From: Escherichia phage REP4 | Strand: one strand, 5' to 3' | DNA: 64,000 bases | Sequence record: OQ174503.1 | Part shown: positions 13,419 through 17,753 of the stretch, one piece after another | Layout: each line of letters starts with the position of its first letter | How positions within the stretch are numbered: the stretch's first letter is position 1 | The notes under the pieces: generated by a model | What the model was told of the DNA's origin: nothing | The model's input: only the letters and a program-made list of their open reading frames with translations | Database searches by the model: none | Position numbers and translations under genes: made by a program

Positions 13419-14000
13419 CTAACCGAGCTTTTTAGTTAATTCATTCCAATGTTTTCTACACAAAGAAACATAAATTTCATCACCAATACAGATTTGATTA
13501 CCTTCTTTAACTGGTGTTCCATCTTCCATTAATCGAGCTGTCATAATCGCTTTTTTACCGCAATGACAAACTGCCTTTAGTTCAATAAGTTTATCTGCAA
13601 TCGCCAAAAGTTCTTTAGAACCTTCAAATAATTTTCCAGCGAAATCAGTCCTTAGACCATAAGCCATAACAGGAACATTATATGTATCGACAATTCGGCT
13701 TAATTGATGTACCTGTTCAGTTTTTAAAAACTGAGCTTCATCTACAAATACACAATGAATATCTTTTTGTGCTTCAGCCCATTTATAGAACTCAAAAATA
13801 TCCATATCATCCGTAATAATATTCGCTTCCTGCTTAATTCCAATGCGAGAAACGACTTCACAGACAGAATCACGAGTATCAATAGCAGGCTTAAGAACTA
13901 ATACACCCATTCCGCGTTCTTTATAATTATGCGCAGCAGTCAAAAGAGAAGCAGATTTTCCAGCATTCATTGCTGCATAAGTAAAAATTAAACTCGCCAT
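13419..14000 (-). CDS. tk: Thymidine kinase
   Basis: 193-aa protein with P-loop NAGKSASL and C-terminal Cys cluster (CHCGKKA...C), typical TK1-family thymidine kinase; matches T4 tk. Confidence 0.9.
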   Translation of the reverse strand: MASLIFTYAAMNAGKSASLLTAAHNYKERGMGVLVLKPAIDTRDSVCEVVSRIGIKQEANIITDDMDIFEFYKWAEAQKDIHCVFVDEAQFLKTEQVHQLSRIVDTYNVPVMAYGLRTDFAGKLFEGSKELLAIADKLIELKAVCHCGKKAIMTARLMEDGTPVKEGNQICIGDEIYVSLCRKHWNELTKKLG

Positions 14001-14009
14001 ATCACCTTC

Positions 14010-14195
14010 TTAAAGCGTATTCACATAAGCTATTAATTCGTTTTCTTTCTTATCAAACCGGTCAGCAAATTCTTCCTGTTGTTCGGGAGATAGCGGGCCG
14101 TATTCATCATAAAAGGTGTTTGCTTCTATATGCTCATCTAGAAGTTCATGGATAAGCTCAAACAATTTATCTTTTTGTTCTTTACTCAGACTCAT
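14010..14195 (-). CDS. Small acidic hypothetical protein
   Basis: 61-aa ORF. Confidence 0.45.
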   Translation of the reverse strand: MSLSKEQKDKLFELIHELLDEHIEANTFYDEYGPLSPEQQEEFADRFDKKENELIAYVNTL

Positions 14196-14361
14196 ATATT
14201 AATTTCCAGAAGTTTTAAAATAATTCGCTTTTGCTTAAATATTTCCATAGTTAAATGATCAGTATCTTTTTGACCAATTCCGATGGCAAAACCTTTATTA
14301 ACAGCGAGTTCAATTAAATTATCAAGCTCACGTAACACTTCATATTGTAACTCAGAACTAT

Positions 14362-14568
14362 TCATTTTGGTTTACCTTCTTTAACAAAATCGGGATAAGG
14401 ATAAAATCCTGAATAAAATCCTTCACCTTTATGATTAATGCATCCTTTATTAGAGCAATAGCACCAATAATCGAAATCACAAGCCATTTCATCATTGCAT
14501 AAAGCAAAAACAACTGGCCATTTACACTTTTCACAATGTGCATTTTTAAGAATGCTAGTTTGGCTCAT
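14362..14568 (-). CDS. Small Cys-rich (zinc-binding-like) protein
   Basis: Track ORF 14362..14589 trimmed to internal Met MSQTSILK; eight Cys (CEKC...C...C..C.C...C). Confidence 0.45.
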   Translation of the reverse strand: MSQTSILKNAHCEKCKWPVVFALCNDEMACDFDYWCYCSNKGCINHKGEGFYSGFYPYPDFVKEGKPK

Positions 14569-14777
14569 AACCGTGTAACCTTTAAGCAATATTCTTCTAC
14601 ATGCTGTTTACGACCTTTCTTATCAATAAAGGTATATTCAACGAATGTTCCAATATAGTCTTTATCTACATCATGTGGACTATTAATTGGGCATTTAGTA
14701 CGGCAAATGCGTTCCCATTGACGAATAATTTCCACTTTGTTTTTAGGATCAAACGGATGCGGGTAATGTGCTTTCAT
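14565..14777 (-). CDS. Small hypothetical protein
   Basis: 70-aa ORF starting ATG. Confidence 0.45.
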   Translation of the reverse strand: MKAHYPHPFDPKNKVEIIRQWERICRTKCPINSPHDVDKDYIGTFVEYTFIDKKGRKQHVEEYCLKVTRL

Positions 14778-15228
14778 AATCCACCACTATTAAATCAATA
14801 TCAGGAGTAAACATGTCGATTAATTTAGAAACCTTATCCCAATCGCCGCCAGCAATACCGCAACCTATGCGTGGAATATAAATTACTGGTTTAAACAAAA
14901 GGGTCTCTGCCTGTAGATTTAATTCTATCATGCAGTTTACTAAAGCACCATAATCAAGATTAGGACCCGGTTCGTATTGCGTATAAAGGTTATAGCATAT
15001 ACCAAATCCTGTAGGACTGTGTTTAAAAACAATAGACATATCGCCTAATTTATCACGAGAACCGTACTCGGTAGTGGTTTTATCTATTTCTAAAATTTTG
15101 GGATAGGCTTTTGCTAATTGACCTGCTACGCCAGAGCCCATTGTGTGGAAGCAATTGCACCCGTGCGCAATAATATTACCTTGAAGAAATAGGGCGACAA
15201 TATCGCCCTTGATATATTTTACAATCAT
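14749..15228 (-). CDS. Macro-domain protein (ADP-ribose binding / ADP-ribosyl hydrolase fold)
   Basis: 159-aa protein with macro-like motifs ...IAHGCNCFHTMGSGVAGQLAKAYP... and ...PRIGCGIAGGDW... Confidence 0.6.
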   Translation of the reverse strand: MIVKYIKGDIVALFLQGNIIAHGCNCFHTMGSGVAGQLAKAYPKILEIDKTTTEYGSRDKLGDMSIVFKHSPTGFGICYNLYTQYEPGPNLDYGALVNCMIELNLQAETLLFKPVIYIPRIGCGIAGGDWDKVSKLIDMFTPDIDLIVVDYESTLPASV

Positions 15229-15566
15229 CTAGTACTCAATCCTCGATTATAAGAATCTACCAAACGGTCAACCATTGAATGACAAGCGGCTTTATCTTTC
15301 TCCTCCGCAACTGAACATTCTAAGGTATTCCACTTTTTAGCATATCGTTTTAATAAAGTATCATTTTTGTATCTGCTTGATTTATCTCTTTCTCCGTCTT
15401 TATATGCATATATTAATTTCTGCGCAAATTCAGCTTGGCATGCTTTATTTTTCCCGCAATAATCCGCGGCAGTACGGTTTACATACTCTCTAATTTCAGT
15501 ATATGATGTATTTGCTAACGCAGAAAATGAAATTAATCCTATACATAAAACCAAAATTTTAGTCAT
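15225..15566 (-). CDS. Secreted/periplasmic Cys-containing protein with N-terminal signal peptide
   Basis: 113-aa ORF, N-terminus MTKILVLCIGLISFSALA. Confidence 0.5.
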   Translation of the reverse strand: MTKILVLCIGLISFSALANTSYTEIREYVNRTAADYCGKNKACQAEFAQKLIYAYKDGERDKSSRYKNDTLLKRYAKKWNTLECSVAEEKDKAACHSMVDRLVDSYNRGLSTR

Positions 15567-16111: not shown

Positions 16112-16573
16112 TCATTGAGTTTTAATTACTGCTTTAGAAGCCTTTCCTGGTAAACGACGACTGTTGATAATTGCCATCCTGCATTGAAGCGACGGGTCTT
16201 TGAACTTCGCATTAGGTTTACAAACTGTAAATCCAAGCCAAAGATTTCCATCGGTGATTTCTAAACGCCCAGGACGATATTCAACCCCATCAATAAAATC
16301 CTCGTCAATGTCAGGACGCGGAGGCATACTTAGGAATTCATTAACTTCTAAAACATGGTCTTTTATTTTATGGAATAATTCAAAAACATATGTCTCATCA
16401 ATCTCCCGTTGAATTGCGCGATCAAGAAGATGCTGAGAATATTTTAGATGAAACGATGAGACCCCTGCTGCTTTTGATGCCTCACGAATCTCATTGTTAA
16501 TTTGACGAAACTCCGACTCAAAGTGACGACGGAGCTTATTTCGACGGATAAAAACTTCTGTGTTGATAGTCAT
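16112..16573 (-). CDS. regB: RegB site-specific endoribonuclease
   Basis: 153-aa protein MTINTEVFIRRNKLRRHFESEFRQ... matches T4 RegB length and sequence from memory. Confidence 0.85.
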   Translation of the reverse strand: MTINTEVFIRRNKLRRHFESEFRQINNEIREASKAAGVSSFHLKYSQHLLDRAIQREIDETYVFELFHKIKDHVLEVNEFLSMPPRPDIDEDFIDGVEYRPGRLEITDGNLWLGFTVCKPNAKFKDPSLQCRMAIINSRRLPGKASKAVIKTQ

Positions 16574-16600: not shown

Positions 16601-16630
16601 ATTATACCACAGTCAAGAGGAAAAGTAAAC
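16601..16630 (-). promoter_or_regulatory. T4 early-type promoter upstream of regB
   Basis: GTTTAC at 16630..16625, extended -10 TGGTATAAT at 16610..16602. Confidence 0.6.
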
Positions 16631-17213: not shown

Positions 17214-17391
17214 CTAAACGAATAGGTTCATGAATGCCATATCCCTGAACGGAAATTTCTGTCGTAGGATAAATTCCACTAATATCACCCATGTTCCATG
17301 CTTCATTAAATTGCTGTTCGCCTGAATTACTAAACCATTCGGCGAAAGCATTTAGCACATCTTCAGAACCTTCAATAATTATCTTTGCCAT
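17170..17391 (-). CDS. Small acidic hypothetical protein
   Basis: 73-aa ORF. Confidence 0.45.
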   Translation of the reverse strand: MAKIIIEGSEDVLNAFAEWFSNSGEQQFNEAWNMGDISGIYPTTEISVQGYGIHEPIRLVEYDLCTGEEVKYD

Positions 17392-17753
17392 TACAGGCTC
17401 TCAGTAAAGGTACGAGCGATAACGTCGCGCTGCTGTTCCGGAGTCAGAGAGTTAAAGCGAACTGCATAACCGGATACACGGATGGTCAGCTGCGGATATT
17501 TTTCCGGATGCTTAACTGCATCTTCCAGAGTTTCACGACGCAGAACGTTAACGTTCAGGTGTTGACCACCCTCGATTTTAACTGTAGGTTGTGTTTCAAT
17601 TTCAATTTCACGGGCATGCAAACCATAGAAAATTTCTGGGTCTACAAAAGAGTCCTCTTTAAAAGTTTTAGAGACAATAATTCGTGCTTGAATACCATCT
17701 TCAAAATAAATAGTACCTTTATGCGTGCCTTCAAGAATTTGATATGCTTTCAT
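17391..17753 (-). CDS. Autonomous glycyl-radical cofactor (GrcA/YfiD-like; T4 Y06I-type)
   Basis: C-terminal 65 aa ...[60 protein letters not shown] contains the RVSGY glycyl-radical motif and matches E. coli GrcA from memory; DNA of this part is GC-rich. Confidence 0.85.

Follow-up and report, generated by a model that had tools for sequence, protein, structure and literature searches.

When a transposon library of phage T4 was screened by HIDEN-SEQ on Escherichia coli expressing DarTG2, no gene other than tk.4 scored significantly, and clean removal of tk.4 sensitised T4 to DarTG2. The gene is dispensable on plain E. coli K-12, scored only with DarTG2, and was renamed adfM, for anti-DarT factor macrodomain (bioRxiv 10.1101/2025.11.20.689424). 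We found no functional work on tk.4 in the literature beyond this preprint; in a 2026 preprint the T2 tk.4 transcript is only listed among the partners of ArcZ, a host small RNA. Here we describe the counterpart of tk.4 in Escherichia phage REP4, within a stretch of 64,000 nucleotides from sequence record OQ174503.1 that we refer to as the window. The gene is a minus-strand reading frame of 159 residues, read from ATG to stop, and is a divergent allele of T4 tk.4/adfM and its orthologue. It belongs to a family that is already known and widely annotated, the anti-DarTG2 phenotype of the T4 orthologue is published, and nothing categorically new is found here; two details go beyond the annotations, namely a predicted glutamine-type (Gln-type) active site and the apparent swapping-in of an old allele.

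Macrodomain proteins other than Tk.4 have also been linked to the reversal of DarT modification. PhiKZ gp104, which was independently named AdfM, removes DarT2-installed ADP-ribose from an oligonucleotide in vitro, and its N23A variant shows reduced activity (Cell Rep 2026, PMC13309987). On DNA, SCO6735 of Streptomyces coelicolor cleaves thymidine-linked ADP-ribose, and in vivo it gives Streptomyces protection against DarT. This enzyme carries Gln85 at the position of the lysine found in related macrodomains, and both Q85A and Q85E are inactive; activity is almost abolished by N27S, which removes the asparagine that positions Gln85, and is reduced by G128E in the phosphate-binding loop, while K34 and K89 are DNA-positioning lysines (PMC9411070). 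Two further anti-DarT factors were rejected as counterparts of the window gene. ICP1 AdfB is a 77-residue direct DarT inhibitor with no macrodomain, and T4 AdfN is a different gene, 30.3, whose NADAR protein acts on DarTG1.

The tk.4 locus of phage REP4

To compare the locus with T4 we used the phage T4T record, in which the annotated order is tk, tk.1, tk.2, tk.3, tk.4, vs, vs.1, regB and tk.4 is noted as 'contains A1pp phosphatase motif'. The reading frame in the window fills the tk.4 slot of this order. Its product aligns with T4T Tk.4 over 155 residues at 59% identity and with no gap (E = 6e-71), and the genes that flank it show 91–99% protein identity to those of T4T. The orthology follows from this gapless alignment together with the gene order tk.3, reading frame, vs, vs.1, regB, which is as in T4T. 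The original prediction had placed a 159-residue frame at 14749–15228, with no strand given, and had set it in the tk–regB early region; both the frame and its context were found as described, tk and regB each encoding a protein 99% identical to that of T4T. It had also recognised the macro domain, but not that the frame is the named T4 gene tk.4.

Homologues of the window protein were found by tblastn in 2,788 phage records, which include coliphages and phages of Klebsiella, Salmonella, Vibrio, Pseudomonas and Acinetobacter. These homologues are variously labelled 'macro domain protein', 'phosphatase', 'O-acetyl-ADP-ribose deacetylase' or 'hypothetical'. The ratio of nonsynonymous to synonymous divergence (dN/dS) between the window allele and the T4 allele is 0.2, indicating purifying selection. 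This value, the tblastn homologues and the Pfam and PHROG 335 matches given below establish a real gene rather than a chance frame. In two Vibrio phages, Noelle (OQ095919.1) and Thalassa (MG649967.1), the Tk.4-family macrodomain gene adjoins a ribose-phosphate pyrophosphokinase gene, and in Streptomyces phage Francob (PP537961.1) it adjoins an annotated ADP-ribosyltransferase gene. Outside the T-even phages, the family may have other partners or roles.

An ALC1-like macrodomain with a predicted Gln-type active site

The Pfam Macro model (PF01661) gives the window protein 31.9 bits, above its gathering cut-off of 22 (E = 1.4e-7), and is matched over positions 2–117 of its 118. The protein also matches PHROG 335, labelled 'phosphatase', with an E value of 5e-72. 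Direct sequence searches of the PDB returned Bacteroides BT1257 (E = 1.7e-10), yeast Poa1p, Streptomyces SCO6735, Mycobacterium tuberculosis DarG and human TARG1, and with a family profile the same ALC1-like relatives rose to E values from 3e-20 down to 1.7e-11, SCO6735 ranking eighth. An AlphaFold2 model built with 66 homologues was confident, with a mean predicted local distance difference test (pLDDT) score of 94.5 and a predicted template modelling (pTM) score of 0.89, and adopts the three-layer α/β/α macro fold. The top Foldseek matches to this model are TARG1, BT1257, Poa1p and DarG, each with a probability of 1.0, and MacroD-type structures score clearly lower than ALC1-like ones. In agreement with this, the NCBIfam model for O-acetyl-ADP-ribose deacetylase of the MacroD/YmdB type (NF001661) failed, reaching 14.2 bits against a cut-off of 291. 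Because the PDB sequence, profile and Foldseek matches and the AlphaFold2 model all point the same way, we assign the window protein to the ALC1-like class that holds TARG1, DarG, Poa1p and SCO6735, and not to the MacroD, macroH2A or PARG classes. Thus, the macro-domain call of the original prediction, for which it had proposed a profile search and structure prediction as checks, is borne out by Pfam, by the model and by the fold comparison.

The call had leaned on two motifs, and both are present: HGCNCFHTMGSGVAGQL, which begins at residue 22, as does the loop-1 segment HGCNCFHTMGSGVAGQ, and IGCGIAGGDW, at residues 121–130 within the phosphate-binding loop PRIGCGIAGGDW. We mapped the putative catalytic residues on family alignments of 40, 66 and 118 homologues, which extend down to about 38% identity. 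In these alignments G8, H22, G23, N25, C26, G33, A35, D49, N80, Y82, Q84, P119, G122, G124 and W130 are invariant or nearly so, with H22, N25 and Q84 invariant in all 118 homologues of the largest set. Profile alignment places the family segment 'NLYTQY' over 'YLITKK' of TARG1, so that Q84 falls on the catalytic Lys84. It likewise takes the place of the catalytic lysine in DarG (K80) and in the PTK motif of PhiKZ AdfM, where hhalign pairs T83-Q84 of the window protein with the T-K of PTK. A MAFFT alignment of the 118 homologues with PhiKZ AdfM put PTK two columns off TQ; it was set aside in favour of hhalign because MAFFT is unreliable at the distance of PhiKZ AdfM. The second catalytic residue of TARG1, Asp125, corresponds to A126. 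Since Q84 and A126 occupy these two positions, the lysine chemistry of DarG and the lysine/aspartate chemistry of TARG1 are absent from the window protein.

The remaining elements of the site resemble those of SCO6735. N25 is the conserved macrodomain asparagine and aligns with N23 of PhiKZ AdfM, and the shared H-x-x-N spacing suggests that H22 and N25 correspond to H24 and N27 of SCO6735. The phosphate-binding loop closely matches PRIGCGLAGGTW of SCO6735 and PRIGCGLAGGKW of BT1257, with G124 at the position of SCO6735 G128. When a fragment was used as query against SCO6735 (PDB 5E3B), direct alignment was limited to residues 113–141, around this loop. The pairing of Q84 with SCO6735 Q85 is therefore a putative, transitive equivalence, made through the TARG1 alignment and the statement on Gln85 in the SCO6735 study (PMC9411070). 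The set expected of a Gln-type site is complete, with Q84 at the catalytic position, N25 in loop 1 and the GxG of the phosphate-binding loop formed by G122 and G124. Two Poa1p residues that were mutated in PDB entries 6LFS and 6LFT can also be placed: H23 is matched by the invariant H22, and the S30 position is T29, which varies among T, L, V, Q and S in the family.

Compared with T4 Tk.4/AdfM, the window protein shares the locus, the gene order (tk.3, tk.4, vs, vs.1, regB), a similar length (159 versus 155 residues) and the invariant H22/N25/Q84/G122/G124/W130 set. The two differ in the phosphate-binding loop, which reads GCGIAGGD, the family consensus, in the window and GAGIGKGN in T4; the genetic test in T4 covers the T4 allele only. 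SCO6735, like the window protein, is a stand-alone single domain that lacks a DarT-binding domain, has glutamine at the catalytic position, has a loop-1 histidine and asparagine with equal spacing, and has a closely matching PRIGCG(L/I)AGGxW loop. However, it is encoded by a bacterial chromosomal gene with a DNA-damage promoter, and outside the phosphate-binding loop its direct similarity to the window protein is low (phmmer E = 2e-7; profile E = 2.5e-16).

The window protein is not a DarG. The DarG2 proteins compared were those of Thermus aquaticus and M. tuberculosis (PDB 5M31 and 5M3I). The catalytic lysine of DarG2, Lys80 in T. aquaticus, is replaced by glutamine here, and DarG2 has a C-terminal DarT-binding domain that this single macrodomain of 159 residues lacks. 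No darT adjoins the window gene, whose neighbours are vs and tk.3. In addition, the NCBIfam DarG equivalog model NF048014 gives 28.2 bits against a cut-off of 250, with only the macrodomain part of its 338-position profile matched. These four points, the low equivalog score and the absence of the DarT-binding domain, of darT and of the catalytic lysine, together exclude the assignment. DarG models are the best matches within PADLOC and within NCBIfam, with E values of 4e-7 and 1e-6.

PhiKZ AdfM has in common with the window protein that it is a stand-alone phage macrodomain that counters DarTG2, and the name and the proposed role are the same for both. In contrast, it belongs to the DarG-type subfamily (E = 9e-25 to 5M3I), has the lysine of PTK where the window protein has glutamine, and is imported into the phage nucleus, a structure that T-even phages lack. 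BLASTP aligned merely 23 and 42 residues of the two proteins (E = 0.001 and 0.75), and hhalign gave a probability of 96%, indicating remote homology. The name AdfM is thus in use for two proteins that, from their sequences, fall into different subfamilies with different predicted chemistry, T4 Tk.4 being Gln-type and SCO6735-like and PhiKZ gp104 being Lys-type and DarG-like, a collision worth flagging to annotators. TARG1, Poa1p and BT1257 give the best matches in the PDB, by structure as well as by sequence. Of these, BT1257 also has glutamine where the profile alignment places Q84, TARG1 differs by its Lys84/Asp125 dyad, which is absent from the window protein, and Poa1p differs in being an Appr-1''-p (ADP-ribose-1''-phosphate) phosphatase. 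We describe the window protein as an orthologue of Tk.4/AdfM whose active site resembles that of SCO6735.

Proposed function and competing explanations

We propose, with a probability of about 0.7, that the window gene encodes an orphan antitoxin-like ADP-ribosyl glycohydrolase, orthologous to tk.4/adfM, that reverses DarT2 marks on DNA by a Gln-type mechanism; the window allele would then have the same activity and target as its relatives. The proposal is based on the orthology, the DarTG2 phenotype of T4 tk.4, the Gln-type site, the dN/dS of 0.2 and the matches to DarG models. DarT2, once released by a DarTG2-type defence, ADP-ribosylates thymidines in single-stranded DNA. Under the proposal, the macrodomain would bind the ADP-ribose in the cleft between its HGCNC...GxG loop and its PRIGCGIAGG loop and take it off the base, allowing replication to proceed. 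The chemistry would be SCO6735-like, with N25 holding Q84 and a water-initiated reaction, and the Lys-type mechanism of DarG, TARG1 and PhiKZ AdfM is not predicted. Such a site predicts that Q84 and N25 mutants would be inactive. Among the roles named in the original prediction, reversal of a host ADP-ribosylating toxin is the one with genetic support, from the DarTG2 sensitivity of the T4 tk.4 knockout, and it is correct for the T4 orthologue; for the degradation of NAD (nicotinamide adenine dinucleotide)-derived signals and for action on the products of phage ADP-ribosyltransferases we found no evidence. In annotation, the label AdfM-type anti-DarTG2 macrodomain could replace 'phosphatase' or 'hypothetical protein' in records of this gene.

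Several observations weigh against this proposal. The removal of ADP-ribose from DNA by Tk.4 was deduced solely from predicted structural similarity to M. tuberculosis DarG (bioRxiv 10.1101/2025.11.20.689424). Of the residues in the genetically tested T4 protein, 41% differ in the window protein, the phosphate-binding loop included. By motif-based position counting, the DNA-positioning lysines K34 and K89 of SCO6735 seem to have no obvious counterparts, S32 and G88 falling at these positions. In its N-terminal half the window protein is at least as similar to Poa1p, an Appr-1''-p phosphatase, as it is to DarG. Finally, in the one bacterial homologue neighbourhood examined, that of Pelagimonas P0092, no DarT is adjacent. 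A captured darTG operon as the origin of the gene was set aside, this locus, which has no toxin neighbour, being a single and uninformative case.

The resemblance to Poa1p supports a rival reading in which the protein instead processes a small ADP-ribose metabolite, dephosphorylating ADP-ribose-1''-phosphate as Poa1p does or deacetylating O-acetyl-ADP-ribose. Such a role is what the labels 'phosphatase', 'A1pp' and 'O-acetyl-ADP-ribose deacetylase' in the databases suggest, but they were transferred by homology and do not come from tests. The O-acetyl-ADP-ribose deacetylase model reaches only 14 bits of the 291 needed, MacroD-type structures score lower than ALC1-like ones, and the sole known phenotype of the T4 orthologue is DarTG2 sensitivity. 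Nor is any source of Appr-1''-p known during infection by T4, since a 2'-phosphate is not left behind when T4 repairs tRNA. We consider a metabolite substrate unlikely.

The close structural relatives raise a different possibility, as TARG1 and SCO6735 also remove glutamate-linked ADP-ribose from proteins. The window protein could accordingly erase ADP-ribose from proteins or RNA, whether added by the phage's own transferases Alt, ModA and ModB or by other ADP-ribosylating toxins of the host, with DarTG2 not its main or only target, and the homologue in a Streptomyces phage that adjoins an annotated ADP-ribosyltransferase would fit such a function. However, T4 can do without tk.4 on plain E. 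coli K-12, the gene having scored only when DarTG2 was present, and no transferase gene adjoins tk.4 in the window. Moreover, arginine is the residue modified by the T4 transferases, and macrodomains are not known to break this linkage. A protein or RNA target of this kind is, in our judgement, improbable.

A third explanation keeps DarT2 as the target and removes catalysis: the toxin or its substrate would be neutralised mainly by binding, as by dead SCO6735 or the direct DarT inhibitors AdfA and AdfB. Q85A, a catalytically inactive variant of SCO6735, remains an inhibitor of DarT in vitro and a stronger one than mutants of DarG or TARG1, and the high allelic divergence at the tk.4 locus would fit co-evolution with a protein partner. 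The putative catalytic and ADP-ribose-binding residues are, however, all invariant in the 118 homologues, which argues that catalysis is under selection, and the window protein, one domain of 159 residues, lacks the C-terminal DarT-binding domain of DarG. We regard neutralisation by binding as very unlikely, and glycohydrolase activity on DarT2-modified DNA as the preferred reading.

An anciently diverged allele and its surroundings

Around tk.4, the window DNA shares 99.2% identity with Escherichia phage KFS-EC3 and 97–98% with many Tequatrovirus genomes; the window is from a Tequatrovirus. Against this background tk.4 stands apart from the genes beside it. The proteins of tk, vs, vs.1 and regB are 98–99% identical to those of T4T, with synonymous divergence (dS) of 0.10–0.16, whereas tk.3 is at 91% with a dS of 0.52 and tk.4 is at 59% with a dS of 1.8, which is essentially saturated. 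The first approximately 70 nucleotides of tk.4, together with the sequence upstream, are identical to T4. Because dS is saturated in tk.4 while it remains at 0.10–0.16 in the four flanking genes, we favour an allele that was exchanged over one that drifted. The pattern fits an anciently diverged tk.4 allele that was recombined in and kept functional, and not rapid divergence in place. The window protein is 96–100% identical to others of its allele class and about 59–82% identical to the other alleles at the locus, among them database alleles at 82, 79, 76, 65 and 62%.

The difference from T4 Tk.4 at 41% of residues means that the specificity of the window allele could differ. As to competence, the window allele has the family-consensus loop GIAGG where T4 has the unusual GIGKG, and it is thus at least as likely to be catalytically competent. 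We tentatively suggest, as a possibility that at present we rate below even odds by a wide measure, that the T-even Tk.4/AdfM proteins form a Gln-type, SCO6735-like clade of anti-DarT enzymes, set apart in mechanism from DarG and PhiKZ AdfM, which are Lys-type, and that its divergent alleles encode different specificities. On this suggestion the alleles would be matched to DarT2 variants, to other nucleic-acid ADP-ribosyltransferases or to direct toxin binding. If it is true, the range of DarT-armed hosts open to a phage depends in part on its allele. Old alleles set between near-identical flanks also provide a natural allele series for DarT specificity.

Table 1 Features of the tk.4 locus in the REP4 window
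Feature	Position	Strand	Remarks
tk	13419..14000		99% protein identity to T4T tk
tk.3 orthologue, 70 residues, downstream gene	14565..14777	-	91% identical to T4T Tk.3; PHROG 2008
tk.4/adfM-type gene, single-domain macrodomain protein of 159 residues	14749..15228	-	
Divergent allelic segment	~14770..15171		42–78% nucleotide identity to T4T in 60-nucleotide windows; flanks 80–100%; sliding identity
Phosphate-binding loop PRIGCGIAGGDW, residues 119–130	14839..14874	-	P119, G122, G124, W130 invariant or nearly so
NLYTQ motif, residues 80–84	14977..14991	-	N80, Y82, Q84 invariant in 118/118
Loop-1 motif HGCNCFHTMGSGVAGQ, residues 22–37	15118..15165	-	H22, G23, N25, C26, G33, A35 invariant in 118/118
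GC-rich hairpin AGGGCGATATTGTCGCCCT, then U-rich run	15191..15209	-	terminator-like, 20–38 nucleotides inside the tk.4 frame; consensus scan
vs (valyl-tRNA synthetase modifier), upstream gene	15225..15566	-	PHROG 1256, E = 6.5e-40; 98% identical to T4T Vs
regB	16112..16573		99% protein identity to T4T regB

The gene is overlapped at both ends. The stop codon of vs shares an ATGA with the start of tk.4, as read directly from the sequence, and the start of tk.3 overlaps the 3' end of tk.4 by 29 nucleotides, as is typical of the tightly packed early regions of T-even phages. The ATGA suggests that translation of tk.4 is coupled to that of vs. In a consensus scan, promoter-like sites in the region were not above shuffled expectation (13 found versus 15.4 expected), and for this reason we claim no dedicated tk.4 promoter. 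The best coding-strand match, at 16629..16601, lies upstream of regB, and tk.4 is probably co-transcribed with regB, vs.1 and vs.

The terminator-like hairpin near the start of tk.4 lies within the segment that is identical to T4. Its stem-loop, with a folding energy of about -13 kcal/mol, is thus unchanged in T4T though the rest of tk.4 diverged, and its equivalent is annotated as 'terminator' in MT682709.1. The hairpin could act as an attenuator of read-through that enters tk.4 and tk.3 from vs.

Two other parts of the window were noted. Between 14000 and 14590 the tk.1–tk.2 segment of T4 is replaced, nucleotide identity to T4T being 25–57% with many gaps. Three small minus-strand reading frames (14010–14195, 14192–14365 and 14362–14589) stand here against two in T4, and they match PHROG 653, 3452 and 2306, all labelled as of unknown function. 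Only the first resembles T4 tk.2, weakly (68% over 181 nucleotides). The frame of 75 residues is cysteine-rich with CxxC-like motifs and may bind zinc. At 17391–17753, also on the minus strand, a frame of 120 residues carries the C-terminal glycyl-radical-type motif RVSGYAV. For its counterpart in phage GADU22 the annotation reads 'autonomous glycyl radical cofactor', and the product would be a GrcA/YfiD-like spare-part protein.
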